Part shown: positions 2,349 to 48,173 of the stretch, piece by piece
How positions within the stretch are numbered: the stretch's first letter is position 1
Layout of the letters: each line of letters begins with the position of its first letter
Source: Escherichia coli
GTDB lineage: Bacteria; Pseudomonadota; Gammaproteobacteria; Enterobacterales; Enterobacteriaceae
DNA length: 64,000 nucleotides
NCBI RefSeq assembly: GCF_013122565.1
Contig: NZ_CP053258.1
Reading direction: 5' to 3' (one strand)
The notes under the pieces: generated by a model
What the model was told of the DNA's origin: nothing
Databases searched by the model: none
What the model saw: the letters and a program-made list of their open reading frames with translations, nothing else
Made by a program: the position numbers and the translations under genes

Positions 2349-3525
2349 ATTGCAGACCGCGCTCTTTCAGGCGTTCGATACCCTGAATCTGCAACGGGTA
2401 AAAACATTTAGCGTTCCACCGATGACGCTTTGCGGTCCGGGCGCGGTGAGCAGTTGTGGGCAGCAAGCGCAAACGCGTGGGCTGAAACATCTGTTCGTGA
2501 TGGCAGACAGCTTTTTGCATCAGGCGGGGATGACCGCCGGGCTGACGCGCAGCCTGGCCGTTAAAGGTATCGCCATGACGCTCTGGCCATGTCCGGTGGG
2601 CGAACCATGCATCACCGACGTATGTGCAGCCGTGGCGCAGCTGCGTGAATCAGGCTGTGACGGGGTGATCGCGTTTGGCGGCGGCTCGGTGCTGGATGCG
2701 GCGAAAGCCGTGGCGTTGCTGGTGACGAACCCCGATAGCACGCTGGCGGAAATGTCAGAAACCAGCGTTCTGCAACCGCGCCTGCCGTTGATTGCCATTC
2801 CAACGACCGCCGGAACCGGCTCTGAAACCACCAACGTAACGGTGATTATCGACGCGGTGAGCGAGCGCAAGCAGGTGTTAGCCCATGCCTCGCTGATGCC
2901 GGATGTGGCGATCCTCGACGCCGCATTGACCGAAGGTGTGCCGTCGCATGTCACGGCGATGACCGGTATCGACGCGTTAACTCATGCCATTGAAGCGTAC
3001 AGCGCGCTGAACGCCACACCGTTTACCGACAGTCTGGCGATTGGCGCTATTGCGATGATTGGCAAATCGCTGCCGAAAGCGGTGGGCTACGGTCACGACC
3101 TTGCCGCGCGCGAGAGCATGTTGCTGGCTTCATGTATGGCGGGAATGGCGTTTTCCAGTGCGGGGCTTGGGGTATGCCACGCGATGGCGCATCAGCCGGG
3201 GGCGGCGCTGCATATTCCGCACGGTCTGGCGAACGCCATGCTACTGCCAACGGTGATGGAGTTTAACCGGATGGTCTGTCGCGAACGCTTTAGTCAGATT
3301 GGTCGGGCACTGCGAACTAAAAAATCCGACGATCGTGACGCTATTAACGCGGTAAGTGAGTTGATTGCGGAGGTCGGGATCAACAAGCGGCTGGCAGACG
3401 TGGGCGCAACCACCGGACATTACGGCGCATGGGCGCAGGCCGCGCTGGAAGATATTTGTCTGCGCAGCAACCCGCGTACCGCCAGCCTGGAACAGATTGT
3501 CGGCCTGTACGCAGCGGCGCAATAA
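2338..3525 (+). CDS. eutG: Iron-containing alcohol dehydrogenase EutG
   Basis: Track ORF 2311-3525 trimmed to ATG at 2338 (MQNELQTALF...), giving 395 aa as recalled for EutG; overlaps eutJ 3' end by 11 nt. Confidence 0.9.
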   Translation: MQNELQTALFQAFDTLNLQRVKTFSVPPMTLCGPGAVSSCGQQAQTRGLKHLFVMADSFLHQAGMTAGLTRSLAVKGIAMTLWPCPVGEPCITDVCAAVAQLRESGCDGVIAFGGGSVLDAAKAVALLVTNPDSTLAEMSETSVLQPRLPLIAIPTTAGTGSETTNVTVIIDAVSERKQVLAHASLMPDVAILDAALTEGVPSHVTAMTGIDALTHAIEAYSALNATPFTDSLAIGAIAMIGKSLPKAVGYGHDLAARESMLLASCMAGMAFSSAGLGVCHAMAHQPGAALHIPHGLANAMLLPTVMEFNRMVCRERFSQIGRALRTKKSDDRDAINAVSELIAEVGINKRLADVGATTGHYGAWAQAALEDICLRSNPRTASLEQIVGLYAAAQ

Positions 3526-3527
3526 AT

Positions 3528-3611
<84 letters not shown>

Positions 3612-3641
3612 ATAAATAACAACTAACAGGGAGTAAAGGCG

Positions 3642-4868
3642 ATGGGAATTAACGAAATCATCATGTACATCATGATGTTCTTTATGCTGATAGCTGCCGT
3701 AGACAGGATCCTGTCGCAGTTCGGCGGTTCTGCTCGTTTCCTCGGTAAGTTCGGTAAAAGTATCGAAGGATCAGGCGGTCAGTTCGAAGAAGGCTTTATG
3801 GCAATGGGCGCTCTGGGTCTGGCGATGGTCGGTATGACCGCGCTGGCACCGGTACTGGCTCACGTACTCGGGCCGGTAATTATCCCGGTTTACGAAATGC
3901 TCGGCGCAAACCCGTCAATGTTCGCCGGAACGCTGCTGGCGTGCGATATGGGCGGCTTCTTCCTCGCCAAAGAGCTGGCGGGCGGCGACGTAGCAGCGTG
4001 GCTATACTCTGGGTTAATTCTCGGGTCGATGATGGGGCCAACGATTGTGTTTTCCATTCCGGTGGCGCTCGGCATTATCGAACCTTCTGACCGTCGTTAT
4101 CTGGCGCTCGGCGTGCTGGCGGGCATTGTGACCATTCCGATTGGTTGTATCGCTGGTGGTCTGGTAGCTATGTACTCCGGTGTTCAGATCAACGGCCAGC
4201 CGGTGGAATTCACTTTCGCCCTGATCCTGATGAACATGATCCCGGTGATCATTGTTGCGATTCTGGTGGCGCTGGGGCTGAAATTCATCCCGGAAAAAAT
4301 GATCAACGGCTTCCAGATCTTCGCCAAATTCCTCGTTGCATTGATCACCCTCGGTCTTGCCGCTGCGGTAGTGAAATTCCTGCTTGGCTGGGAACTGATC
4401 CCCGGTCTGGATCCTATCTTTATGGCCCCTGGCGATAAACCCGGTGAGGTGATGCGCGCCATTGAAGTTATCGGTTCTATCTCCTGCGTGCTGTTAGGGG
4501 CGTATCCGATGGTGCTGCTGCTGACCCGTTGGTTTGAAAAACCGCTGATGAGCGTCGGTAAAGTGCTGAATATGAACAACATCGCGGCAGCCGGCATGGT
4601 GGCAACGCTTGCCAACAACATCCCGATGTTCGGCATGATGAAGCAGATGGATACCCGCGGCAAAGTCATCAACTGCGCCTTCGCCGTTTCCGCTGCTTTC
4701 GCCCTGGGCGACCACTTAGGCTTCGCCGCTGCCAACATGAACGCCATGATTTTCCCGATGATTGTCGGCAAGTTGATCGGCGGCGTAACGGCGATTGGCG
4801 TGGCGATGATGCTGGTGCCAAAAGAAGACGCGACCGCGGCTAAAACCGAAGCGGAGGCACAATCGTGA
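3642..4868 (+). CDS. eutH: Ethanolamine permease EutH
   Basis: 408-aa highly hydrophobic polytopic membrane ORF; eut synteny. Confidence 0.93.
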   Translation: MGINEIIMYIMMFFMLIAAVDRILSQFGGSARFLGKFGKSIEGSGGQFEEGFMAMGALGLAMVGMTALAPVLAHVLGPVIIPVYEMLGANPSMFAGTLLACDMGGFFLAKELAGGDVAAWLYSGLILGSMMGPTIVFSIPVALGIIEPSDRRYLALGVLAGIVTIPIGCIAGGLVAMYSGVQINGQPVEFTFALILMNMIPVIIVAILVALGLKFIPEKMINGFQIFAKFLVALITLGLAAAVVKFLLGWELIPGLDPIFMAPGDKPGEVMRAIEVIGSISCVLLGAYPMVLLLTRWFEKPLMSVGKVLNMNNIAAAGMVATLANNIPMFGMMKQMDTRGKVINCAFAVSAAFALGDHLGFAAANMNAMIFPMIVGKLIGGVTAIGVAMMLVPKEDATAAKTEAEAQS

Positions 4869-6268
4869 ACACTCGCCAGCTACTGAGCGTCGGTATCGAT
4901 ATCGGCACTACCACCACCCAGGTGATCTTCTCCCACCTGGAGCTGGTTAACCGTGCGGCGGTGTCGCAGGTGCCGCGCTACGAATTCATCAAACGCGAAA
5001 TTAGCTGGCAAAGCCCGGTGTTCTTTACCCCTGTCGATAAACAGGGTGGTTTAAAAGAAGCGGAACTGAAAACCTTAATCCTCGAGCAATATCAGGCTGC
5101 GGGCATTGCGCCGGAAAGCGTTGATTCTGGTGCCATCATCATCACCGGTGAAAGCGCGAAAACCCGCAATGCTCGCCCGGCGGTGATGGCGCTCTCCCGG
5201 TCGCTGGGCGATTTTGTCGTCGCCAGCGCCGGGCCGCATCTCGAATCCGTGATCGCCGGTCACGGTGCCGGGGCGCAAACCCTTTCTGAACAACGGCTGT
5301 GTCGGGTCCTGAATATCGATATCGGCGGTGGCACCGCGAACTACGCCCTGTTCGATGCCGGAAAAATCAGCGGTACTGCCTGCCTCAACGTCGGCGGTCG
5401 CCTGCTGGAAACCGACAGCCAGGGGCGCGTGGTTTACGCTCATAAACCGGGGCAGATGATTGTGGATGAGTGCTTCGGCGCAGGCACCGACGCCCGTTCG
5501 CTGACCGGCGCGCAGCTGGTGCAGGTTACCCGGCGGATGGCAGAGCTGATTGTCGAAGTGATTGACGGAACGCTTTCGCCGCTCGCGCAGGCATTAATGC
5601 AAACCGGTTTGCTGCCCGCAGGTGTTACGCCCGAAATCATTACGCTTTCTGGCGGCGTGGGCGAATGTTATCGCCACCAGCCCGCCGACCCGTTCTGTTT
5701 TGCCGATATTGGCCCGCTGCTGGCAACGGCGCTGCATGACCATCCGCGCCTGCGTGAGATGAACGTGCAGTTTCCGGCGCAAACCGTGCGTGCCACGGTG
5801 ATTGGCGCGGGGGCACATACCCTTTCGCTCTCTGGCAGCACAATCTGGCTTGAGGGCGTACAACTGCCGCTGCGCAATTTGCCGGTGGCGATCCCGATTG
5901 ATGAAACGGATCTGGTGGGTGCCTGGCAACAGGCGCTGATTCAGCTGGATCTTGATCCCAAAACTGACGCGTACGTGCTGGCGCTTCCCGCCTCGCTGCC
6001 TGTGCGTTACGCCGCGGTACTGACGGTCATCAACGCGTTGGTCGATTTCGTCGCGCGTTTTCCGAATCCGCATCCCCTGCTGGTGGTGGCCGGGCAGGAC
6101 TTTGGTAAAGCTCTGGGCATGTTGTTGCGCCCACAGCTACAACAACTCCCGTTGGCAGTCATTGACGAAGTGATTGTCCGCGCGGGGGACTATATCGACA
6201 TTGGTACGCCTCTTTTTGGCGGATCGGTTGTGCCGGTGACGGTGAAATCACTCGCATTTCCTTCCTGA
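4865..6268 (+). CDS. eutA: Ethanolamine ammonia-lyase reactivase EutA
   Basis: 467-aa ORF; GTG start overlapping eutH stop (GTGA); eut synteny. Confidence 0.92.
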   Translation: MNTRQLLSVGIDIGTTTTQVIFSHLELVNRAAVSQVPRYEFIKREISWQSPVFFTPVDKQGGLKEAELKTLILEQYQAAGIAPESVDSGAIIITGESAKTRNARPAVMALSRSLGDFVVASAGPHLESVIAGHGAGAQTLSEQRLCRVLNIDIGGGTANYALFDAGKISGTACLNVGGRLLETDSQGRVVYAHKPGQMIVDECFGAGTDARSLTGAQLVQVTRRMAELIVEVIDGTLSPLAQALMQTGLLPAGVTPEIITLSGGVGECYRHQPADPFCFADIGPLLATALHDHPRLREMNVQFPAQTVRATVIGAGAHTLSLSGSTIWLEGVQLPLRNLPVAIPIDETDLVGAWQQALIQLDLDPKTDAYVLALPASLPVRYAAVLTVINALVDFVARFPNPHPLLVVAGQDFGKALGMLLRPQLQQLPLAVIDEVIVRAGDYIDIGTPLFGGSVVPVTVKSLAFPS

Positions 6269-34131: not shown

Positions 34132-34893
34132 TTACCGCCACATCGCGTGTTTATCGCGATAGCAATCGACCCACATCGCCGTCGCGCCACAAACGGCAAC
34201 GGGCATGATGAACAGATTAAGCAGAGGGATCATCGTAAACAGGCTGGTTAAAGCACCAAACTGCATATTGGTGATTTTGCGTGTGCGCAGGGCGGTGCGC
34301 ATCTCTTTAAACGGCACTTTGTGGTTATCGAAGGGGTAATCGCAATACTGGATGGCTAACATCCAGGCGCTAAACAGGAACCACAGTACCGGCGCGACGG
34401 TTTGCCCAATACCAGGGATGAAGTAAAGAATTAGCAATACAATTGCGCGCGGCAGATACCAGGCAAATTTTTGCCATTCGCGTTTCATGATTCGCGGCAC
34501 ATCTTTCATGATACCGAAAATCCCGGTATCTGGCGGTGTAGCGCCAGTCAGTCTTGCTTCCAGTTGTTCAGCCAATAAACCGTTAAACGGAGCGGCAATC
34601 CAGTTAGCAATCGTTGAGAAGAAATAGCCAAACACTAACAGCACAGAGATGACAGCCAGAGGCCACAACAGATAGCTCAGCCATTGTAACCAGTCCGGAA
34701 CATAACTCATGAGAGTCGGGATCCAGACATCGAGTTGCGTAAAGAGCCACCAGAATGCGCCCCCCATCAACAAAATATTGACCAGCAGCGGTAAAATAAC
34801 GAAACGCCGAATCCCTGGTTGCGAGACGAGCTTCCAGCCTTGCGCAAAATAGTAAAAACCGCTGCGTGGGGCAGATGTGAATGATGAAACCAT
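34132..34893 (-). CDS. cysZ: Sulfate transporter CysZ
   Basis: 253-aa membrane ORF upstream of cysK. Confidence 0.93.
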
Positions 34894-35122
34894 AATCAGG
34901 ATGAGCTCCTTTTGACCAATCCCAGGAAAATTCTGCGTATTTTACCGGGTAATTGCGCAATGGACAGTTAGGATATGTTCGAAAAAACAGCAAAAAGCAC
35001 GATTTCATCTATCTTTGTGCTGTGAAAGTTAATAGTGCACTTGCACTTGAGGTAATCGGCAAATACTCTTAGTGAGTAAATGTTTGCCGTGGTGGCAAGG
35101 TGTTAGAACAACAGAGAATATA

Positions 35123-36121
35123 ATGATGCAGGATTTGCGTCTGATATTAATCATTGTTGGCGCGATCGCCATAATCGCTTTACTGGTACATGGTTTCTGG
35201 ACCAGCCGTAAAGAACGATCTTCTATGTTCCGCGATCGGCCATTAAAACGAATGAAGTCAAAACGTGACGACGATTCTTATGACGAGGATGTCGAAGATG
35301 ATGAGGGCGTTGGTGAGGTTCGAGTTCACCGCGTGAATCATGCCCCGGCTAACGCCCAGGAGCATGAGGCTGCTCGTCCGTCGCCGCAACACCAGTACCA
35401 ACCGCCTTATGCGTCTGCCCAGCCCCGTCAACCGGTCCAGCAGCCGCCTGAAGCGCAGGTACCGCCGCAACATGCTCCGCGTCCAGCGCAGCCGGTGCAG
35501 CAACCCGTGCAGCAGCCTGCCTATCAGCCGCAGCCTGAACAGCCGTTGCAGCAGCCAGTTTCGCCACAGGTCGCATCAGCGCCGCAGCCAGTGCATTCAG
35601 CACCGCAATCGGCACAACAGGCTTTCCAGCCTGCAGAACCCGTAGCGGCACCACAGCCTGAGCCTGTAGTGGAACCGGCTCCAGTTATGGATAAACCGAA
35701 GCGCAAAGAAGCGGTGATTATCATGAACGTCGCGGCGCATCACGGTAGCGAGCTAAACGGTGAACTGCTTCTTAACAGCATTCAACAAGCGGGCTTCATT
35801 TTTGGCGATATGAATATTTACCATCGTCATCTTAGCCCGGATGGCAGCGGCCCGGCGTTATTTAGCCTGGCGAATATGGTGAAACCGGGAACCTTTGATC
35901 CTGAAATGAAGGATTTCACTACTCCGGGTGTCACTATCTTTATGCAGGTACCGTCTTACGGTGACGAGCTGCAGAACTTCAAGCTGATGCTGCAATCTGC
36001 GCAGCATATTGCCGATGAAGTGGGCGGTGTAGTGCTTGACGATCAGCGCCGTATGATGACTCCGCAGAAATTGCGCGAGTACCAGGACATCATCCGCGAA
36101 GTCAAAGACGCCAACGCCTGA
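35123..36121 (+). CDS. zipA: Cell division protein ZipA
   Basis: Trimmed to ATG 35123 ([18 protein letters not shown]...); N-terminal TM anchor, P/Q-rich linker, C-terminal FtsZ-binding domain. Confidence 0.93.
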
Positions 36122-36151
36122 TACACTTAAGGCAAATTAACTCCTCTTCGA

Positions 36152-36175
36152 ACCCCCGCTTGTCGGGGGTTTTTA
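36152..36175 (+). terminator. zipA-distal hairpin
   Basis: acccccgcttgtcgggggttttt. Confidence 0.6.
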
Positions 36176-36182
36176 GCATTGA

Positions 36183-38207
<2,025 letters not shown>

Positions 38208-38208
38208 G

Positions 38209-38427
38209 ATGGAAAAAGAGCAGCTGATTGAAATAGCCAATACGATAATGCCGTTTGGCAAATACAAAGGGCGTCGCTTAATCGACCTGCCGGAGGAGTA
38301 TCTGCTGTGGTTTGCCCGCAAAGATGAGTTCCCGGCAGGGAAGCTCGGTGAGCTAATGCAAATCACGCTGCTGATTAAAACCGAGGGGCTGACGCAACTG
38401 GTCCAGCCCCTGAAGCGTCCGCTTTAA
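38209..38427 (+). CDS. ypeB: Small protein YpeB (DUF3820)
   Basis: Trimmed to ATG 38209 (MEKEQLIEIANTIMPFGKYKGRR...), 72 aa, immediately after ligA stop. Confidence 0.8.
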   Translation: MEKEQLIEIANTIMPFGKYKGRRLIDLPEEYLLWFARKDEFPAGKLGELMQITLLIKTEGLTQLVQPLKRPL

Positions 38428-39422
38428 GCTTTATCGGCGCTGCTTTCCTGCTGCGCCTGTAACTGTTCGGTCTGGCGTTTGTATCGACGCGCCAGCACCG
38501 CACAGACCATCAATTGGATCTGATGGAAAATCATCAGGGGCAGCACCATCATACCGATCACCGATGTGGGGAACAGAATGTTTGCCATCGGGATGCCATT
38601 TGCCAGACTCTTTTTCGAACCACAAAAGACGATAGTAATTTCATCTGCTTTATTGAAGCCCAGTCGGCGTGCCATAAAGACGTTAACTACAATCACGATA
38701 GCCAGAAGAACGCAGCTGGCCACCACGATAAACAGCAATGATCCCCAGCCAACTTTATGCCAGATACCATTAACGACGGCTTCGCTGAACGCTGTATAAA
38801 CCACCAACAGAATGGACGTCTGGTCAGTTTTCGCAATCCATTTTTTATTGCGCGACACCCAGTCACCAATCCACGGCCGGGAAAGATGCCCTAACACAAA
38901 CGGCAGCAACAGTTGCAGCATAATTTTACCGACCTGCTCAAGGCTGCCCCCTGCACCGTGAACATTCATCACCAGGCCAACCAACAATGGTGAAAGGAAA
39001 ATCCCCAGCAGGCTGGATGCCGACGCAGAACAAACCGCCGCCGCGACGTTACCGCCCGCCATTGACGTGAAGGCGATTGCAGACTGCACGGTCGCGGGGA
39101 GAATGCACAAGTAGAGAAAACCGGAGTAGAGCATCGGGTCGACATTTACCGGTTTCCACCAGGCAAACAGCACGCCCAGAATCGGAAACAGCACGAAGGT
39201 GCTGCACATTACCCACAAATGCAGTCGCCAGTGACCACCGCCAGCAATAATCGCCTCACGCGACAACTTCGCGCCGTGCATAAAGAACAGCAGGGCAATC
39301 GCTGCGGTGGTCAGATTTTCAAAGAAGGGGACGAAATCGCCTCTGGCCGGAAAGAAAGAGGCCAACAACACCACCGTGATCAGGGTTAAGGTGAAAGGAT
39401 CGAGGATACGAAAAAGTTTCAT
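38424..39422 (-). CDS. yfeH: Bile acid:sodium symporter (BASS) family transporter YfeH
   Basis: 332-aa polytopic membrane ORF. Confidence 0.9.
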   Translation of the reverse strand: MKLFRILDPFTLTLITVVLLASFFPARGDFVPFFENLTTAAIALLFFMHGAKLSREAIIAGGGHWRLHLWVMCSTFVLFPILGVLFAWWKPVNVDPMLYSGFLYLCILPATVQSAIAFTSMAGGNVAAAVCSASASSLLGIFLSPLLVGLVMNVHGAGGSLEQVGKIMLQLLLPFVLGHLSRPWIGDWVSRNKKWIAKTDQTSILLVVYTAFSEAVVNGIWHKVGWGSLLFIVVASCVLLAIVIVVNVFMARRLGFNKADEITIVFCGSKKSLANGIPMANILFPTSVIGMMVLPLMIFHQIQLMVCAVLARRYKRQTEQLQAQQESSADKA

Positions 39423-39939
39423 AAAGACTCCAGATGATCGATGCTTTCATTGTGCGTTGTTCTGATTGATAAATAAAACTGAATTGCTTATCAATTTGTG
39501 CGCGAGGAGTGTGAGTGAGTTGCTCGCTCGCTTCGACTGGTTGGCAGAGCGGGGGAGGATATCCCGGATGAGACAAATAAGACGTTCGACAAGAGAATCA
39601 GGTGACTACAGAAAAAATCACAGGATGTTATTACTGCTGATGTTCATGTCGGTTTTCGCGTTATCAGAACTGGTTTTAGAACTGCTATTTAATCGATAAT
39701 GCCATTCTGCAGGAAAGCTTTACCTACTTTATTATTTGCGGTGTGGTAAAACCTGGTCACCAGAGGCAGGTTTAATACCAGACGCTGTCTTTTATCAGAT
39801 ATCCCATGTAAATAATAAATGCAATGAATATTAATTCATTATGTATTTATTTTGTGATTGTTTGGTGTTACTAGTTTGTTGGACAAATAACAACTCTAAC
39901 TAATACATAAACCTTGCATAGTGACAGAGTATCGATCTG

Positions 39940-39977
39940 AATGTTTTCAACATTGATATCAAATTGCAATTGATATC
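39940..39977. promoter_or_regulatory. Candidate operator upstream of the NupG-like transporter: inverted repeat ATGTT-ttc-AACAT followed by two TTGATATC palindromes spaced 17 bp
   Basis: Read directly: gaATGTTttcAACATTGATATCaaattgcaaTTGATATCcg, 75-110 bp upstream of the 40051 start. Confidence 0.35.
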
Positions 39978-40050
39978 CGTGGTAAAAAGTATTGGTAAAT
40001 TTGATGAATTTCCGGATATTTAAAGGGGCGGCTCAAAGACGAAGGGGAAG

Positions 40051-41307
40051 ATGGTGAATCTAAAACTACAGTTAAAAGTTCTTTCATTTCTGCAATTCTT
40101 TTTGTGGGGAAGTTGGCTCAACACATTCGGTTCTTATATGTTTATCACGCTGCGTTTTAAGGGCGAAGATATAGGCGCAGTCTACAGTACACTGGGTATC
40201 GCAGCATTAATAACATCAACGTTATTTGGTATCGTGGCCGATAAATGGATTAGTGCTAAATGGATATATGCCGCTTGTCATTTATTTGGCGCGATAACAT
40301 TATTTATCGCAGCATCGGTTACCACGCCTTCGGCAATGTTCATTGTCATTTTACTTAACTCTCTTGTGTATATGCCAACACTCGGTTTGAGTAATACAAT
40401 TTCCTATTACCGCCTACAAACAGCGGGGATGGATATTGTGACAGAATTTCCGCCAATCCGTATCTGGGGCACGATTGGATTTATTGTCGCAATGTGGGCG
40501 GTTAGCCTGGCTGGTTTTGAATTAAGTCATATGCAATTATATATCGGTGCGGCGGCTTCATTAGGCTTGAGCCTGTTCACGTTGACTTTACCAACTGTAC
40601 CAGTGGCGAAATCTAACCAGGCGCAAGGAATGATAGATGTTCTCGGATTGCGTGCATTTACACTGTTTAAAAACAGCAAAATGGCGATTTTCTTTATCTT
40701 TGCCATGCTGCTCGGGGCAGAGTTACAAATTACCGGGATGTTTGGTAATACATTTCTCCACAGCTTTGAGAGCGTTCCAGAGTTTACCAATAGTTTTGTT
40801 GTTACCCATGCTTCTATTCTGTTATCAATTTCTCAGATATCCGAAGTCTGTTTCATTCTTGCCATTCCTTTTTTCCTGAAAAAATACGGTATCAAAAATG
40901 TCATGCTGATGAGCATGGTGGCCTGGATGCTGCGTTTTGGTTTATTCGCTTATGGCGATCCTTCATTCGGTGGTACCATTCTGTTAATTCTTTCGATGAT
41001 TGTTTATGGCTGTGCTTTTGACTTCTTCAATATATCTGGCTCGGTATTTGTTGAACAAGAAGTTGATCCATCGATTCGTAACAGCGCTCAGGGCGTTTTC
41101 CTGATGATGGCCAATGGTTTTGGTTGTATTCTGGGCGGTTTTATCAGTGGTAAAGTCGTCGATTATTTAACAACGGATGGCAATCCACAGTGGTCAACCA
41201 TTTGGCTGGTATTTGCCGGATATTCACTGGTTCTGGCTCTCGCATTTATGGTGTTGTTTAAATATAAACACAACGGTAACCCGACAACGTCCGGTCATTT
41301 CGCCTGA
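40051..41307 (+). CDS. Nucleoside:H+ symporter, NHS family (NupG/XapB paralog)
   Basis: 418-aa 12-TM-like ORF; near-collinear similarity to recalled NupG and to XapB encoded 2 kb downstream (e.g. LQFFLWGSWL, FPPIRIWGTIGFI, GCAFDFFNISGSVFVEQEV). AT-rich codon usage. Confidence 0.85.
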   Translation: MVNLKLQLKVLSFLQFFLWGSWLNTFGSYMFITLRFKGEDIGAVYSTLGIAALITSTLFGIVADKWISAKWIYAACHLFGAITLFIAASVTTPSAMFIVILLNSLVYMPTLGLSNTISYYRLQTAGMDIVTEFPPIRIWGTIGFIVAMWAVSLAGFELSHMQLYIGAAASLGLSLFTLTLPTVPVAKSNQAQGMIDVLGLRAFTLFKNSKMAIFFIFAMLLGAELQITGMFGNTFLHSFESVPEFTNSFVVTHASILLSISQISEVCFILAIPFFLKKYGIKNVMLMSMVAWMLRFGLFAYGDPSFGGTILLILSMIVYGCAFDFFNISGSVFVEQEVDPSIRNSAQGVFLMMANGFGCILGGFISGKVVDYLTTDGNPQWSTIWLVFAGYSLVLALAFMVLFKYKHNGNPTTSGHFA

Positions 41308-41361
41308 TACGGAGTTTATCAAAATTAATAATGTTTTATAGGATTCGCAAAAGAGGAAGTT

Positions 41362-42273
41362 ATGGCAAATCAATTGTATAACCAGTGTCGGGTTTATTGT
41401 GCACCCTGGCGATTAGATGCTTTAAATTTAAATGATATCATTGATCAATGGATTGACGAGGGGCTGTTGCCGCCCCTGATCCATACTTTTCTTCCATATC
41501 GCGATGATGCCGGTGCCTCCAGTGAAGAAGAGATTTTTGTTAACGATGTCGCGAATATGGATAACAGTGTTGGGGTTATCGGTTATTTCGATGGTGGAAC
41601 CTATGATTCCGGTTATGCATGGGCTTTAGGGATGCCTGTTCACCTGGTAACGACAGACTTTCTTATATGGGCAGCGGGGAATTCTTCAGAGTTTTATCCT
41701 ATAAGTAAGCTGATGAATTATGTGGCAAAAGTGGTTTCTGTGTCAGATTCCGATACCAGTATCAGCAATTATCGTGAACAAACCGACGATATCATCAAGC
41801 GTGCGTTGCAAATTTTTCAACAAAATTTAATCGCCGACTTCGGCACGACGATTAATCCAGCAGTACCGGTTACTCCATTGCCGATTGAGTATGACTACTA
41901 TATTGATCCTAACTTTATGTATACCGAACCCTCTCGGGACTTACTGGTGAAGATCAAAGATGCGATCATTAGTGCAGGTAAGACTTTCATCGTTGGCGAC
42001 AACATGAATGATATTGCGACTGATATTGATAACTTAAGAAAATCCAGACAGGCCATCTTTTATTCCGATACCTTTGAGCCGAATGTTGACACCGGCATTA
42101 TGAATGGTATTGCCTATGCATTAGGACAGCAATCGATTATTTATTGTAGCAAGCAACAAAAATATCAATCTGCGCTCGCGACAGATTATTTAAATTTAAT
42201 GATTACCTGGTCGTCAACGGTGGCGCATTCATTTGCGGAACTTGAAACATTGATTGGTAACACAGAAAAATAA
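41362..42273 (+). CDS. Hypothetical protein with two tandem nucleoside 2-deoxyribosyltransferase-like repeats
   Basis: 303-aa ORF with RBS agaggaag; internal repeat ([DS]G..[YI]A[WY]ALG at ~aa 80-95 and ~aa 255-270) resembling the NDT/DNPH1 D-x-G-..-E-x-G-Y-A-x-A-x-G-K-P-V motif. Fold assignment is inference. Confidence 0.6.
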   Translation: MANQLYNQCRVYCAPWRLDALNLNDIIDQWIDEGLLPPLIHTFLPYRDDAGASSEEEIFVNDVANMDNSVGVIGYFDGGTYDSGYAWALGMPVHLVTTDFLIWAAGNSSEFYPISKLMNYVAKVVSVSDSDTSISNYREQTDDIIKRALQIFQQNLIADFGTTINPAVPVTPLPIEYDYYIDPNFMYTEPSRDLLVKIKDAIISAGKTFIVGDNMNDIATDIDNLRKSRQAIFYSDTFEPNVDTGIMNGIAYALGQQSIIYCSKQQKYQSALATDYLNLMITWSSTVAHSFAELETLIGNTEK

Positions 42274-42284
42274 TAGTTAATTTT

Positions 42285-42330
42285 ACTGATTATCAGGTGA
42301 GTGATTGCCTGATAATCAGCTTTTTGTTAG
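42285..42330 (+). terminator. Rho-independent terminator after the 303-aa gene
   Basis: Perfect 12-bp inverted repeat CTGATTATCAGG...CCTGATAATCAG followed by ctttttg. Confidence 0.65.
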
Positions 42331-42501
42331 CCACCAAAGAAAAATATACTGCCGTTATATTTCTCTGCCGGGGAACGATATGATCGATTTCAAAATTATA
42401 TTGAATATCTCTGGAAAATGTATTGGTCACTCGCGACTTTTTCTCGCTATAAAAAAATGTGACTCAGATCTAACGCATAATGCTTATTACAAGGACTTGC
42501 C

Positions 42502-43335
42502 ATGACCCAATCTCATTTTTCACAAAACCCGTGGTATTGCGCAGATATCATTCGTCGTCATAAACCAGACTTTACCCCACGCGTTGCGTTTATTTTGGGT
42601 TCGGGACTGGGAGCGCTGGCTGAACAAATAGAAGACGCAGTTGCCATTTCTTATAGCGATTTGCCGGGGTTTCCGGTGAGCACCGTACACGGCCATGCAG
42701 GAGAGTTGGTCCTCGGCGTGCTTTCTGGTGTGCCTGTAGCCTGCATGAAAGGTCGCGGTCATTTTTATGAGGGCCGGGGAATGACTGTCATGACTGATGC
42801 TATTCGCACGTTCAAGTTGCTGGGCTGTGAATTGTTGTTCTGCACTAACGCTGCAGGTTCGCTTCGCCCGGAAGTAGGGGCGGGTAGTCTGGTTGCGCTG
42901 AAAGATCACATTAATACGATGCCAGGCACACCGATGACAGGCCTTAATGATGAGCGTTTTGGTGAACGTTTTTTCTCATTAGCGAATGCTTACGATGCTG
43001 ATTACCGCGCCGTTTTACAAACCGTCGCGCATGAAGAAGGTTTTCCGCTGACAGAAGGGGTTTTTGTTTCTTATCCGGGGCCGAACTTCGAAACGGCGGC
43101 AGAAATTCGCATGATGCAGCTGTTTGGTGGCGACGTAGTAGGTATGTCTGTAGTGCCTGAAGTGATTAGCGCACGTCATTGCGAAATGAAAGTCGTTGCC
43201 GTGTCAGCAATAACCAACATGGCGGAAGGCTTAAGCGATGTGAAATTGTCGCATGCCCAAACCCTGGCTGCAGCAGAGTTATCACGACAAAACTTTATTA
43301 ATTTGATTTGCGGATTCTTACGCAAAATCGCCTGA
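42502..43335 (+). CDS. xapA: Xanthosine phosphorylase (purine nucleoside phosphorylase II) XapA
   Basis: 277-aa PNP-family ORF; xapAB-xapR synteny. Confidence 0.93.
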   Translation: MTQSHFSQNPWYCADIIRRHKPDFTPRVAFILGSGLGALAEQIEDAVAISYSDLPGFPVSTVHGHAGELVLGVLSGVPVACMKGRGHFYEGRGMTVMTDAIRTFKLLGCELLFCTNAAGSLRPEVGAGSLVALKDHINTMPGTPMTGLNDERFGERFFSLANAYDADYRAVLQTVAHEEGFPLTEGVFVSYPGPNFETAAEIRMMQLFGGDVVGMSVVPEVISARHCEMKVVAVSAITNMAEGLSDVKLSHAQTLAAAELSRQNFINLICGFLRKIA

Positions 43336-43392
43336 AAACAATAAAAATGGCCTCGCGGATGGGGCCATCTCTCTGCGATAAGGAAACGAAAA

Positions 43393-44640
43393 ATGAATAT
43401 CGCAACGCGTTTAAAGGTAATGTCTTTCTTACAATATTTTATCTGGGGGAGTTGGTTAGTTACCCTCGGATCTTACATGATAAACACCTTACATTTTACC
43501 GGGGCTGATGTCGGTATGGCATACAGTTCTAAAGGCATTGCGGCCATTATTATGCCAGCCATTATGGGCATTATTGCCGATAAATGGTTACGGGCTGAAC
43601 GTACCTATATGCTGTGTCACTTAATTTGTGCCGGGGTGCTTTTTTATGCCGCCTCCGTAACTGAACCGAATATGATGTTCTGGGTGATGTTGCTTAACGC
43701 GATGGCTTTCATGCCCACGATTGCGTTATCCAACAGTGTTTCCTATTCGTGCCTGGCGCAGGCCGGATTAGACCCAGTCACCAGTTTTCCGCCAATCCGT
43801 GTTTATGGCACCGTGGGATTTATTGTCGCAATGTGGCTGGTGAGTTTATTGCATCTGGAGTTAAGTAGTGTGCAGTTGTATATCGCTTCTGGAGCATCTT
43901 TAGTGTTAGCGATCTATGCATTAACATTACCGAAAATTCCAGTGGCGGAACATAAAGCCAGTACGACGCTTTCCAGTAAATTAGGCCTGGATGCGTTTGT
44001 GTTATTTAAAAATCCGCGTATGGCGATTTTCTTTTTATTTGCTATGTTATTAGGTGCGGTACTGCAAATTACTAACGTTTTTGGTAATCCTTTCCTGCAT
44101 GACTTTGCCCGCAATCTTGAGTTTGCTGATAGCTTCGTGGTGAAATATCCATCCATTTTGCTCTCGGTTTCACAAATGGCGGAAGTCGGCTTCATTCTTA
44201 CCATTCCATTCTTCCTGAAGCGTTTTGGCATCAAAACCGTCATGTTGATGAGTATGGTAGCGTGGACGTTACGCTTTGGCTTCTTTGCCTTTGGCGACCC
44301 ATCGGCAGGTGGCTTTGTATTATTGTTGTTGTCGATGATTGTGTATGGCTGCGCGTTCGACTTTTTCAATATCTCCGGTTCAGTGTTTGTCGAGCAAGAA
44401 GTGGACTCCAGGATCCGCGCCAGCGCTCAGGGTTTATTTATGACTATGGTCAATGGCGTTGGGGCGTGGATTGGTTCTCTTCTGAGTGGCATGGCAGTTG
44501 ACTATTTCACGGTTGATGGCGTGAAAGACTGGCAAACCATCTGGCTAGTATTTGCTGCGTATGCACTGGCCTTAGCGGTGATTTTTGCCCTGTTCTTCCG
44601 TTATAAGCATGAACCTGATAAATGGCGCAGAAATCATTGA
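43393..44640 (+). CDS. xapB: Xanthosine permease XapB (NHS family)
   Basis: 415-aa membrane ORF downstream of xapA. Confidence 0.93.
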   Translation: MNIATRLKVMSFLQYFIWGSWLVTLGSYMINTLHFTGADVGMAYSSKGIAAIIMPAIMGIIADKWLRAERTYMLCHLICAGVLFYAASVTEPNMMFWVMLLNAMAFMPTIALSNSVSYSCLAQAGLDPVTSFPPIRVYGTVGFIVAMWLVSLLHLELSSVQLYIASGASLVLAIYALTLPKIPVAEHKASTTLSSKLGLDAFVLFKNPRMAIFFLFAMLLGAVLQITNVFGNPFLHDFARNLEFADSFVVKYPSILLSVSQMAEVGFILTIPFFLKRFGIKTVMLMSMVAWTLRFGFFAFGDPSAGGFVLLLLSMIVYGCAFDFFNISGSVFVEQEVDSRIRASAQGLFMTMVNGVGAWIGSLLSGMAVDYFTVDGVKDWQTIWLVFAAYALALAVIFALFFRYKHEPDKWRRNH

Positions 44641-44716
44641 CTCACTGATGTAAACAGGGTTTTCCTTGATTGCAATGTGCTAAGTTTGCAGCCTTACCCA
44701 TACCGCGTGGAGCGCA

Positions 44717-45607
44717 ATGATTATGGAAGGTACGCATCGTATTGATCTCAAGTTATTGCGCTATTTTCTTGCGGTCGCAGAAGAACTTCACTTTGGGCGG
44801 GCCGCTGCGCGGCTGAATATGTCGCAACCGCCATTAAGTATTCATATTAAAGATCTGGAGCAACAGTTGGGCACGTTGCTGTTCGTTCGTCATTCGCGCA
44901 GTGTGGCGCTCACTCATGCGGGGAAAATTTTACTGGAAGAGTCACGTCGTCTGCTGGCTAATGCCAGTCAGGCGTTGGCACGAGTAGAACAGATCGGTCG
45001 TGGTGAGGCAGGGCGCATTGAGCTGGGCGTGGTGGGAACCGCAATGTGGGGGCGAATGCGTCCGGTAATGCGGCGGTTTTTGAAAGAGTGCCCTAATGTT
45101 CATGTCTCATTTCGTGAAAAATCACCAGGGATGCAAATGGCATTGCTCGAGCGGCGGGAGCTGGACGCGGGTATCTGGCGGATGGCAATTGAACCCACGA
45201 CGGGATTTACCAGTCTGCGATTACACGAATCTTCGTTTTTGGTGGCGATACCGGAAGATCATCATCTGGCTTGCGAAAACGCTATCCCGTTAATGGCATT
45301 ACGCAATGAATACTTTGTGACGCTGCCATCGGTCCATTCCGACTGGGCGTTTTTACAGCGTGTCTGTCAGCAGGCAGGGTTTTCACCGATGATCGTTCGG
45401 GAGGCCGTAGAACCGCAAACCGTACTGGCGATGATCAGTATGGGGCTGGGTGTGACATTAATGGCAGATAGCTATGCCCAAATGAGCTGGCCGGGTGTGG
45501 TATTTCGTCCACTCGAGGAACGTATTCCAGCAGATTTGTATATTGTTTATGAACAGCAACAGGCAACACCAGCGCTGGAGAGATTAGTTAATGCTTTGAT
45601 AGCATGA
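44717..45607 (+). CDS. xapR: LysR-family regulator XapR
   Basis: 296-aa ORF with N-terminal LysR HTH (LKLLRYFLAVAEELHFGRAAARLNMSQPPLS); exact start uncertain. Confidence 0.85.
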   Translation: MIMEGTHRIDLKLLRYFLAVAEELHFGRAAARLNMSQPPLSIHIKDLEQQLGTLLFVRHSRSVALTHAGKILLEESRRLLANASQALARVEQIGRGEAGRIELGVVGTAMWGRMRPVMRRFLKECPNVHVSFREKSPGMQMALLERRELDAGIWRMAIEPTTGFTSLRLHESSFLVAIPEDHHLACENAIPLMALRNEYFVTLPSVHSDWAFLQRVCQQAGFSPMIVREAVEPQTVLAMISMGLGVTLMADSYAQMSWPGVVFRPLEERIPADLYIVYEQQQATPALERLVNALIA

Positions 45608-45626
45608 AAGAAGATATCGCAGATAG

Positions 45627-45654
45627 CAAAAAAGCGCCTTTAGGGCGCTTTTTT
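45627..45654. terminator. Bidirectional terminator (xapR on +, tRNA operon on -)
   Basis: aaaaaagcgcctttagggcgctttttt. Confidence 0.7.
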
Positions 45655-45658
45655 GCAT

Positions 45659-45734
45659 TGGTGGGTCGTGCAGGATTCGAACCTGCGACCAATTGATTAA
45701 AAGTCAACTGCTCTACCAACTGAGCTAACGACCC
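45659..45734 (-). tRNA. lysV: tRNA-Lys (anticodon UUU)
   Basis: Reverse complement folds as tRNA: GGGTCGTTAGCTCAGTTGG... anticodon loop CTTTTAA ...CCA. Confidence 0.95.
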
Positions 45735-45738
45735 GAAG

Positions 45739-45814
45739 TGGTGGGTGATGACGGGATCGAACCGCCGACCCCCTCCTTGTAAGGGAGGTGCTCTCCCAGC
45801 TGAGCTAATCACCC
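45739..45814 (-). tRNA. valY: tRNA-Val (anticodon UAC)
   Basis: Reverse complement GGGTGATTAGCTCAGCTGGGAGAGCACCTCCCTTACAAGGAGG...CCA; copy 1 of 3 identical genes. Confidence 0.95.
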
Positions 45815-45860
45815 ACTTCGGTACTTCACATTTTTACAAGAAATTTAGCTGGCGAGAAAG

Positions 45861-45936
45861 TGGTGGGTGATGACGGGATCGAACCGCCGACCCCCTCCTT
45901 GTAAGGGAGGTGCTCTCCCAGCTGAGCTAATCACCC
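45861..45936 (-). tRNA. valX: tRNA-Val (anticodon UAC)
   Basis: Identical copy 2. Confidence 0.95.
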
Positions 45937-45980
45937 ACTTCTCAATTTCTTGCTACACGGCGGAGACTACATAAAGTAGT

Positions 45981-46056
45981 TGGTGGGTGATGACGGGATC
46001 GAACCGCCGACCCCCTCCTTGTAAGGGAGGTGCTCTCCCAGCTGAGCTAATCACCC
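45981..46056 (-). tRNA. valU: tRNA-Val (anticodon UAC)
   Basis: Identical copy 3 (promoter-proximal on minus strand). Confidence 0.95.
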
Positions 46057-46314
46057 CCGCTGTGTGGAGTCGCATTATAGGGAGAGTTCAAAATGAGTCA
46101 ACGCATTTTCTAAAGAAATTGTTCGTTCGTCGTAAATTTAAGCAAGATGATCGCAAAACAGACCGTGTTGCGCAATTTGTCAACGAAAACAATAATGCGT
46201 AAGGTTGCAACCCGAACTACATTGAGGAATCAGGCGGGAGTGATAGAATATCGCCCACTCAATTTTTCCAGGATTTGCCGGTTGTCGGCATCTTTCTAAA
46301 CGTAAGGCCATTTC

Positions 46315-47730
46315 ATGAAAATCAAAACTCGCTTCGCGCCAAGCCCAACAGGCTATCTGCACGTTGGCGGCGCGCGTACTGCTCTTTACTCCTGGCTTTT
46401 TGCACGTAATCACGGCGGTGAGTTCGTGCTGCGTATTGAAGACACCGATCTTGAGCGTTCCACGCCGGAAGCTATCGAAGCCATTATGGATGGCATGAAC
46501 TGGCTGAGCCTGGAGTGGGATGAAGGTCCGTACTTCCAGACCAAACGTTTTGATCGCTACAACGCGGTGATCGATCAGATGCTGGAAGAGGGCACAGCTT
46601 ATAAATGCTATTGCTCTAAAGAGCGCCTGGAAGCGCTGCGCGAAGAGCAAATGGCGAAAGGTGAGAAGCCGCGTTATGACGGTCGCTGCCGCCACAGTCA
46701 TGAGCATCACGCTGATGATGAGCCGTGTGTCGTACGTTTTGCTAACCCGCAGGAAGGTTCTGTTGTTTTTGACGATCAGATCCGTGGTCCGATCGAGTTC
46801 AGCAACCAGGAACTGGACGATCTTATTATCCGCCGTACCGATGGTTCCCCAACCTATAACTTCTGTGTGGTTGTCGATGACTGGGATATGGAAATCACCC
46901 ACGTTATCCGTGGCGAAGACCATATCAACAACACGCCACGCCAGATCAACATTCTTAAGGCCCTGAAAGCGCCAGTGCCGGTTTACGCGCACGTTTCTAT
47001 GATCAACGGCGATGACGGTAAAAAACTGTCCAAACGTCACGGGGCGGTCAGCGTAATGCAGTATCGTGATGACGGTTATTTGCCAGAAGCACTGCTGAAC
47101 TATCTGGTGCGTCTGGGCTGGTCCCACGGCGATCAGGAAATCTTCACTCGTGAAGAGATGATCAAATACTTCACCCTGAATGCCGTCAGCAAATCTGCCA
47201 GTGCGTTCAACACCGACAAGCTGCTGTGGCTGAACCATCACTACATTAATGCGCTGCCGCCGGAGTATGTTGCTACTCACTTACAGTGGCACATTGAGCA
47301 GGAAAATATCGATACCCGTAACGGCCCGCAGCTGGCTGAGCTGGTGAAACTGCTGGGCGAACGCTGCAAGACGCTGAAAGAGATGGCACAGAGCTGCCGT
47401 TATTTCTACGAAGATTTTGCTGAGTTCGATGCCGACGCCGCGAAAAAACATCTGCGCCCAGTAGCGCGTCAGCCGCTGGAAGTGGTTCGTGACAAACTGA
47501 CTGCGATTACTGACTGGACCGCTGAAAACGTTCATCACGCTATTCAGGCGACGGCGGATGAGCTGGAAGTGGGTATGGGTAAAGTTGGTATGCCGCTGCG
47601 TGTCGCCGTAACCGGTGCGGGGCAGTCTCCGGCACTGGATGTTACCGTTCACGCAATCGGTAAGACCCGCAGTATCGAGCGTATCAACAAAGCTCTGGCT
47701 TTTATTGCGGAACGTGAAAATCAGCAGTAA
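46315..47730 (+). CDS. gltX: Glutamyl-tRNA synthetase GltX
   Basis: 471-aa class I aaRS ORF; HIGH-type (HVGGART) and KMSKS-type (KLSKR) motifs seen. Confidence 0.97.
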
Positions 47731-47748
47731 TTAGCGCATAAAAGATAA

Positions 47749-47778
47749 ACGGCAGGAGAAATACCCCTGCCGTTTTTT
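47749..47778. terminator. Bidirectional terminator between convergent gltX and yfeD
   Basis: aacggcaggagaaatacccctgccgtttttt. Confidence 0.7.
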
Positions 47779-47780
47779 AT

Positions 47781-48173
47781 TCATGCTGATTCATCTATGT
47801 CGAGACGAGCAAGGAAATTACGAATTCCTTCGCGTGACAAAAATTGCGCAACTTTTTCCTGCTCACTGTGAGTCATGTTGTCTATTGCGCTGATGATTTG
47901 CCGATAAGCAGGAGTGCGAATCCCCGGTGCGTATTCGGCAAGGGGTTCTTCGGCTTCCAGAAGCATCGGTGTGTTATGGAAGGCTGGCGTGTTCTGAATA
48001 AACTCGCAAACTTGCGTATCGACCAGAATAAGTCTGGCACGACCGCCTTTCACGCCGGGAAATTTTTCCGTTTTCCAGCCTTTTTCTCTGATCCAACGGT
48101 TAACAGTTTGTTTAGCCACACCGAGGCATTCAGCCAGTTCTTCGGTGGTCATTTTATTGCGTAATCTTTTCAT
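47781..48173 (-). CDS. yfeD: DUF1323 HTH protein YfeD
   Basis: 130-aa ORF; paralog of the adjacent yfeC (shared ...EELAECLGVAKQTVNRWIREKGW... core). Confidence 0.85.
   Translation of the reverse strand: MKRLRNKMTTEELAECLGVAKQTVNRWIREKGWKTEKFPGVKGGRARLILVDTQVCEFIQNTPAFHNTPMLLEAEEPLAEYAPGIRTPAYRQIISAIDNMTHSEQEKVAQFLSREGIRNFLARLDIDESA

Follow-up and report, generated by a model that had tools for sequence, protein, structure and literature searches.

What occupies the position between yfeH and xapA on this Escherichia coli chromosome, and does it still work? The question concerns a stretch of 64,000 nucleotides (NCBI RefSeq assembly GCF_013122565.1, contig NZ_CP053258.1), hereafter the window, in which a gene for a nucleoside permease and a gene for a protein related to nucleoside 2-deoxyribosyltransferases (NDTs) lie just ahead of xapA. 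A preliminary description of the window had presented the pair as an AT-rich cassette standing in place of yfeR-yfeN, suggestive of horizontal acquisition or locus replacement, that may form an uptake-and-cleavage unit parallel to that of xapA-xapB. The answer towards which we lean, with reasonable confidence, is that the two genes form an operon of an alternative Escherichia xap island, comprising a xapA-type promoter, a NupG paralogue and a single-chain, duplicated NDT-fold enzyme, and that the copy in this strain is decaying. Gene pairs of this sort are known; this one is modestly new in its fused two-domain NDT-fold protein, its third NupG-type paralogue and its xapA-type promoter. The operon consists of the following features:

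40051-41307, plus strand: NupG-paralogous nucleoside:H+ symporter gene (418 aa), which belongs to TIGR00889 and appears intact
41362-42273, plus strand: gene of the fused two-domain NDT-fold protein (303 aa), carrying an 18-bp in-frame deletion with its junction after 41610
42286-42326, plus strand: intrinsic terminator closing the two-gene operon, with a 12-bp perfect stem (42286-42319) followed by CTTTTT

The two open reading frames (ORFs) share one strand and are separated by a 54-nt spacer, and an intergenic stretch of 628 bp (39423-40050) lies between the divergent yfeH (38424-39422) and the permease ORF. Gene coordinates, gap, leader length and the strong terminator were all as the preliminary description gave them, and no terminator-like site in the region is stronger than the stem with its T-run. 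The K-12 map that it gave was also accurate: MG1655 carries yfeR and yfeN between yfeH and xapA, and K-12 has no cassette there. The composition likewise is AT-richer than that of the core. The permease gene has a GC content of 0.418 and a GC content at third codon positions (GC3) of 0.422, the NDT-like gene 0.411 for both, and the leader a GC content of 0.379; among the core genes, GC3 is 0.546 in ligA, 0.628 in yfeH and 0.578 in gltX, and the GC content of the entire window is 0.519. An Rfam search of 39300-42600 at a permissive threshold returned no match, with no riboswitch or known leader RNA detected, and the number of sites in a sigma-70 consensus scan of the region was not above that of shuffled sequence.

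The relation of this operon to xapA is visible in its promoter region, where the following elements were found:

39951-39996, plus strand: xapA-type operator-like element, with ATTGATATC present twice (39951-39959 and 39969-39977)
39969-39996, plus strand: motif ATTGA-N15-GTATTGGT, 55 nt ahead of the permease ATG
40017-40022, plus strand: -10-like hexamer TATTTA, exactly 20 nt past the motif
42400-42453, plus strand: xapA promoter, with a copy of the motif (42400-42427) 75 nt ahead of the xapA start and TATAAA at 42448-42453

Across the 64 kb there are exactly two copies of ATTGA-N15-GTATTGGT, in the upstream regions of the permease gene and of xapA, and none of 100 shuffles reached two matches. 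This motif also precedes xapA in K-12, in IAI39, in E. albertii and in L011, the GTDB species representative of another Escherichia lineage that is labelled E. coli, and it precedes the permease gene in IAI39, L011 and Citrobacter. Among nine aligned promoters, TATWWA always lies exactly 20 nt after the motif, and a related half-site (ATYGATWTC-like) is located just upstream of it. The xapA upstream region of K-12 resembles that of the cassette permease, and when the K-12 spacer between yfeN and xapA was searched for traces of the cassette, the shared promoter element was all that was found. Laxhuber et al. described two XapR sites in the xapAB promoter, one partly overlapping the -35 element and one farther upstream (PMC7205307), and the position of the shared elements agrees with both. 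Judging from this similarity, the permease-enzyme operon likely belongs to the XapR regulon. The cassette had been said to mirror xapA-xapB, and the likeness is stronger than was claimed, with a promoter architecture as in xapA promoters. As a separate observation, a HusR (YnfL) binding site in the K-12 xapA-yfeN spacer (L003, 6880-7127) and a HusR-dependent expression of xapA in stationary phase have been reported in a 2026 paper (PMC12844172).

The permease belongs to the nucleoside:H+ symporter family and is NupG-like, as first described. It matches TIGR00889 ("nucleoside permease") with 633.1 bits (cutoff 446.1) over residues 3-412 of 418, and its amino acid identity is 74% to K-12 NupG, 61% to XapB and 86% to the Citrobacter cassette permease. 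The N-terminus of NupG and the RefSeq annotation of relatives indicate that translation probably starts at GTG 40054. In NupG, nine residues form the uridine pocket, and the ribose is contacted by R136, T140 and E264 (PMC8042404). Eight of the nine pocket residues are kept in the window permease: the ribose contacts are all identical, and F143, Q225, Q261, Y318, F322 and D323 are also retained. The base-contact residue N228 is Gly in both the window permease and the Citrobacter copy, so that the nine pocket residues are not all identical, as they would be in a NupG orthologue of the same specificity. According to published work, the N228A substitution abolishes uridine binding in NupG, and the Gly at this position suggests a different base preference or nucleoside specificity.

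The second gene required a family-level analysis. The 303-aa protein of the window gave two weak matches to PF05014, at residues 41-99 (i-E 0.0059) and 219-280 (0.024); NCBIfam had no match for it or for an intact homologue, and a phmmer search of PDB sequences with this one protein returned chance matches only. A profile built from 14 intact homologues matched solved NDTs, with 7m5h at E 3.8e-8 and also 7o62, 6evs, 2a0k and 1s2d, the values ranging to 7e-3. The alignment spans the motif D-x-G-x-x-x-E-x-G-x-A and places the family glutamate opposite residue 101 of the chain in 1s2d, whose entry title refers to a ribosylated intermediate; we take Glu101 to be the nucleophile of that enzyme. AlphaFold2 (AF2) modelling and the Foldseek search were carried out on an intact 309-aa homologue (P0003), not on the window allele. 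The model (pLDDT 79, pTM 0.85) consists of two alpha/beta halves connected by a long helix. Its 18 best PDB matches were all NDT or PDT structures, with probabilities of 0.99-1.00 and target-normalised TM scores of 0.42-0.64, and the full-length matches in the AlphaFold database were all auto-named or uncharacterised. Profile, predicted fold and motif together place the family in the NDT fold and support the earlier suggestion that the second gene encodes a nucleoside-processing protein.

Comparison of the first half with the second by hhalign gave a probability of 97.8% (E 8.7e-13). By this measure the protein is an internal duplication in which the first half alone retains the catalytic Asp/Glu motif, the second lacking the Glu. 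Among 103 two-domain relatives, P45, D82, G84, E88, G90 and G255 are invariant, and D62, N284 and M286 nearly so. The family is sparsely distributed: the indexed database contained 26 clusters (E. coli, E. albertii, Citrobacter at 80% identity and metagenomes at 43-50%), and relatives of the enzyme were present in only 7 of about 100,000 species genomes. The nearest relatives outside the Enterobacteria come from Clostridia, at 41-54% identity. An exhaustive profile search recovered 112 representatives at E < 1e-10, and 102 of the 150 matches listed had a two-domain length (285-400 aa).

The substrate of this family can be approached through the genes around its members. The neighbourhoods of the closer relatives, with their identity to the query, are as follows:

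Citrobacter, 80%: permease and enzyme pair, adjoining the core gene ade, at a different chromosomal site from that in the window
Metagenomic contig L007, 46%: CRP-like regulator, nucleoside phosphorylase, ABC transporter, enzyme, DeoB-like protein, DeoC
Enterocloster (L014), 44%: purine nucleoside phosphorylase (PNP) of the XapA/PNPH family, ABC transporter, enzyme
Lachnospiraceae M18-1 (L016), 41%: DeoR-like regulator, enzyme, DeoD, DeoC, ABC transporter
Clostridiales metagenome-assembled genome (MAG; L013), 54%: ABC transporter, enzyme, RihC-like nucleoside hydrolase, CytR/LacI-like regulator
Betaproteobacterial MAG (L017), 37%: Tsx, enzyme, LysR regulator

The closer sub-family (37-80% identity) is consistently found with genes of nucleoside uptake and catabolism, often of the deoxyribose route (DeoB, DeoC). 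Two other readings of these neighbourhoods were dropped. The enzyme was considered as adenine-releasing, but the Citrobacter ade is an ordinary core gene and the similar-sized neighbour in the betaproteobacterial MAG is rhodanese/MoeB-like. The LysR gene near the Citrobacter cassette was rejected as a XapR, with 24-27% identity.

The main rival to a nucleoside-directed enzyme, and the less likely of the two, holds that the family consists of N-glycosidases acting on nucleoside 5'-monophosphates, like Rcl/DNPH1 or MilB/BlsM, which would deliver a base and (deoxy)ribose 5-phosphate directly to DeoC. Its case draws on two conserved basic positions in the first loop (position 10, R/K in 84 of 103 relatives, and position 17, R/K in 99 of 103), on the adjoining DeoC genes in two of the loci above, and on a distant member (L020, 3608-10462) that lies among nucleotide-metabolism genes. 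However, the significant PDB matches in sequence and fold are all nucleoside NDTs or PDTs, and no DNPH1/Rcl chain was present among the sequence matches up to E 10 or the 50 best fold matches. The partner transporters are nucleoside or sugar importers, and the DeoB genes that share operons with the enzyme imply a route through (deoxy)ribose 1-phosphate and a phosphorylase. We therefore regard action on monophosphates as unlikely.

Whether the operon is a recent arrival depends on how far the unusual sequence extends. The features that frame it are the following:

38424-39422, minus strand: yfeH, the left core flank, with 99.4% amino acid identity to K-12 YfeH
39671-39797, minus strand: remnant of about 127 bp of a yfeN-like (Tsx/OmpK-family) channel gene, with a 642-bp internal deletion (junction 39740/39742) and the start codon lost
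42502-43335, plus strand: xapA (TIGR01699, 511 bits)
43393-44640, plus strand: xapB (TIGR00889, 708 bits)
44717-45607, plus strand: xapR (NF007439, 515 bits)
45659-45734, minus strand: tRNA-Lys gene (lysV), on the right-hand border of the variable segment, K-12 core-level homology being restored at 45615

The segment unlike K-12 is not confined to the 2.9 kb first flagged; it covers about 6.1 kb (39486-45614) and reaches lysV. The flanks match K-12 at 97.7% (34356-39485, by blastn, stopping there) and 96.9% (45615-48000), whereas within the segment nucleotide identity falls to 77.5% for xapA-xapB and 72.5% for xapR. At the amino acid level, XapA, XapB and XapR are 89.5%, 89.4% and 79.5% identical to their K-12 counterparts, compared with 99.1-99.4% for YfeH, LigA and GltX. 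The XapR of the window is 96% identical to that of E. albertii, 83-87% to those of Salmonella, Klebsiella, Citrobacter and E. fergusonii, and 79% to the K-12 type. This XapR thus stands nearer to other Enterobacteriaceae than to its K-12 counterpart, which makes the allele common in E. coli the outlier, and on these identities the common island looks like a xenologue. The divergent xapABR allele and the cassette form one haplotype, an alternative form of the Escherichia xap island. In the left flank, the mechanically called zipA ORF (35072-36121) opens at GTG 35072; in relatives the gene is annotated with a shorter length (987-999 bp), and the real start is probably an internal ATG near 35123.

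The left part of the segment records what happened to yfeN. Neither an intact yfeR nor an intact yfeN is present anywhere in the 64-kb window. Window positions 38401-39740 align to IAI39 (L001) 3102-4431, and the alignment resumes from 39742 at 5074; the missing 4432-5073 of IAI39 fall inside its annotated OmpK coding sequence (CDS) at 4362-5129. By tblastn, residues 231-248 of the IAI39 YfeN homologue were found at 39748-39695 of the window (E 0.008), and the recognisable parts of the remnant are its C-terminal codons (residues ~233 to 255) and the signal-peptide region only. The leader, described as AT-rich and non-coding, is AT-rich; it is partly a pseudogene, because the yfeN-like remnant lies within it. 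About 185 bp between the core flank and the remnant (39486-39670) match IAI39, but neither yfeR nor any K-12 sequence at this locus. Remnants of yfeR were looked for in these 185 bp and none were found, and the 77-aa and 85-aa ORFs there look spurious.

Other genomes carry the parts that are missing here. In L011, whose flanks are 91% identical to the window, the order is yfeH (minus), yfeR (plus), yfeN (minus), permease (plus), NDT-like gene (plus) and xapA; core-level homology between K-12 and L011 stops 57 bp into the 5' end of yfeN. IAI39 is without yfeR and keeps a yfeN homologue (the OmpK CDS) with 86% amino acid identity to K-12 YfeN. In these intact relatives, a divergent Tsx-family channel gene lies just upstream of the operon. 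A megablast search with 39300-42520 found the cassette in 15 of 5,426 complete E. coli genomes: 7 have the arrangement of the window (96.9-98.7% identity), and in the other 8, including IAI39 and CE10 (~93% identity), yfeH and the permease gene are separated by an additional OmpK/Tsx-family gene. The pair is thus rare, yet already annotated; RefSeq names its products "nucleoside permease" and "nucleoside 2-deoxyribosyltransferase". In E. albertii, too, this locus holds the cassette (86% nucleotide identity).

These arrangements bear on the alternative that a recently acquired foreign two-gene cassette replaced yfeR-yfeN and supplies a second, working uptake-and-cleavage unit. The low GC3 (0.41-0.42), the rarity of the pair among complete E. 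coli genomes, the clostridial origin of the nearest non-enterobacterial enzyme relatives and the different chromosomal site of the Citrobacter pair would all fit such an event. Against this, the cassette does not strictly take the place of yfeR-yfeN, since L011 has yfeR, yfeN and the cassette together, IAI39 has a yfeN homologue with the cassette, and the window itself has a yfeN remnant. The E. albertii cassette is at the same locus, and the divergent block takes in xapABR. The haplotype looks old in the genus rather than recent, because it is also present in E. albertii and because its XapR is closer to other Enterobacteriaceae than the K-12 XapR is. Furthermore, tblastn of the enzyme gave one remote Deinococcus match among plasmids and none among phages, leaving no sign of travel on either, and the enzyme allele found here is without its catalytic Glu. 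A recent acquisition with a working enzyme is, in our judgement, distinctly unlikely, and the older haplotype remains the preferred account.

The state of the enzyme gene was examined by alignment with its intact forms. All 309-aa homologues read ...YDSGCAWEVGYAWAL..., and the window reads ...YDS------GYAWAL.... At the DNA level, 18 bp are deleted in frame after 41610, with the loss of GCAWEV, which includes the invariant E88. The deletion is flanked by the near-repeat GGTT(G/A)TGCATGGG, whose copies, GGTTGTGCATGGG and GGTTATGCATGGG, are near-identical 13-nt repeats; bordering repeats of this kind are typical of slippage. The exact 303-aa sequence belongs to one cluster of two sequences, and the matches in the 15 complete genomes exceed the query length by an amount consistent with the intact form. 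The catalytic glutamate of NDTs, present in 103 of 103 relatives, is thus deleted in the window allele. Because the deletion removes this invariant residue, the enzyme copy of the window is probably inactive, and a second cleavage unit parallel to xapA-xapB, as proposed in the preliminary description, is doubtful in this strain.

It could be argued that the 303-aa allele still functions, with Asp82 or a remodelled helix standing in for the Glu, which would leave the operon fully active. The deletion keeps the reading frame and the ORF has no other damage; Asp82 now comes two residues ahead of the G-Y-A helix (41596-41625), where it occupies the register that Glu88 had (D77-x4-D82-x-G-Y-A in the window, D82-x5-E88-x-G-Y-A in the intact form). 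But E88 and D82 are both invariant in 103 of 103 relatives, so that a D82 taking over from E88 would give up its own role, the allele was seen in a single cluster only, and its lineage shows other decay. Besides the yfeN deletion, the sister strain VE-T9 (L019, 8461-9787; flanks 98.8-99.5% identical) carries an IS1 element (IS1A) and a deletion that took out both cassette genes, xapA and the 5' part of xapB. VE-T9 is independent evidence of loss, and the locus is eroding in the lineage of the window. A fully active operon in this strain is accordingly quite improbable. Probably only the transporter still works here, because yfeN is reduced to about 127 bp and the enzyme gene has lost the 18 bp encoding the invariant glutamate. 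That the NDT-like protein serves as an effector in defence or as a toxin, and not as a metabolic enzyme, is hardly credible. NDT-like domains do occur in anti-phage systems, retrons among them, and resolvases and a SMODS/SLATT locus are found next to distant family members, but PADLOC had no match for the permease or the NDT-like protein, the surroundings here show no phage or mobile element, the promoter resembles that of xapA, and the closer relatives examined (37-80%) are all accompanied by nucleoside transporter or catabolic genes (PNP, DeoB, DeoC, RihC-like, Tsx).

Several points weigh against the interpretation as a XapR-controlled operon with an NDT-fold enzyme. The window protein by itself falls below Pfam significance and has no NCBIfam match. 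The basic residues R/K10 and R/K17 of the first loop could bind phosphate, and the position of D82 in the register of the lost Glu makes residual activity possible. The distant two-domain relatives (L022, 124-3484; L023, 1080-3924; and L020) are found in other contexts, some with deoxynucleoside kinase (dNK), UDG-family, methyltransferase or PRTase genes beside the resolvases and the SMODS/SLATT locus, others with thymidylate-kinase-like, HD, PfkB, nucleobase-permease and dCTP-deaminase genes; the chemistry may vary across the family, and these members may have another function, such as modified nucleotide metabolism. The case for XapR control is one of promoter similarity. A search of the literature on tandem NDTs or on this cassette turned up nothing relevant.

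In an intact operon of this haplotype, the following pathway is proposed. YfeN and the permease would import (deoxy)nucleosides through the two membranes. The enzyme would form a covalent Glu-(deoxy)ribosyl intermediate and then either move the sugar to a purine base, creating a substrate for XapA/PNP, or free the base by hydrolysis. The products would pass to a purine nucleoside phosphorylase, here XapA, and then to DeoB and DeoC. The second half of the enzyme may act as the neighbouring subunit does in classical NDTs, for example through the nearly invariant N284.

A broader interpretation is offered tentatively. The fused two-domain NDT-fold proteins may be unrecognised single-chain, "pseudo-dimeric" N-glycosyl transferases or hydrolases that, with YfeN and the NupG paralogue, make up a XapR-controlled branch of (deoxy)nucleoside catabolism, in which bases are swapped so that XapA can cleave poor substrates. 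If so, the orphan K-12 yfeN would gain a function and its place beside xapA would be explained. The Escherichia xap island would exist in two deeply diverged forms, the rarer of which would be a complete unit of outer-membrane channel, inner-membrane permease and enzyme under the promoter logic of xapA. It would also add an uncharacterised single-chain version to an enzyme family widely used in making nucleoside analogues. The genes of the window are already annotated, and a decaying copy offers little to begin experiments on; IAI39, whose intact 309-aa protein is WP_000013329.1, CE10 and E. albertii are better suited.

Compared with known systems, the enzyme family is closest to the NDTs of PF05014, such as the Lactobacillus NDT/PDT (1f8x, 1s2d), the Chroococcidiopsis enzyme (8pqt) and that of E. 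faecalis (7m5h), with which it shares the fold, the motif D-x-G-x-x-x-E-x-G-x-A and a conserved N-terminal Tyr. Classical NDTs are oligomers with subunits of about 150 aa, whereas in the family described here a chain of about 310 aa fuses two NDT-like halves through a long helix, the second half is without the Glu but has invariant residues of its own (G255, N284, M286), and the genes lie in catabolic operons of Enterobacteria and Clostridia. The window allele differs further in lacking the Glu altogether. Like NupG and XapB (TIGR00889, PF03825), the permease matches the family over its full length above the curated cutoff and keeps the ribose-binding residues; unlike them, it is a third paralogue with Gly at N228, AT-rich and encoded with an NDT-like enzyme.

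Among the Tsx/YfeN outer-membrane channels, a YfeN homologue (NF008574, 435 bits) is divergent from the permease gene in IAI39 and L011, and a true Tsx gene adjoins the enzyme gene in the betaproteobacterial MAG, whereas the window keeps only its remnant. Finally, the operon resembles the xapABR regulon of K-12 in adjoining xapA-xapB-xapR, in its promoter motif and -10 spacing, and in pairing a transporter with a nucleoside-cleaving enzyme. It differs in being a separate operon with its own terminator, in an enzyme of the NDT fold rather than a phosphorylase, and in the divergence of the local xapABR (79-90% amino acid identity).

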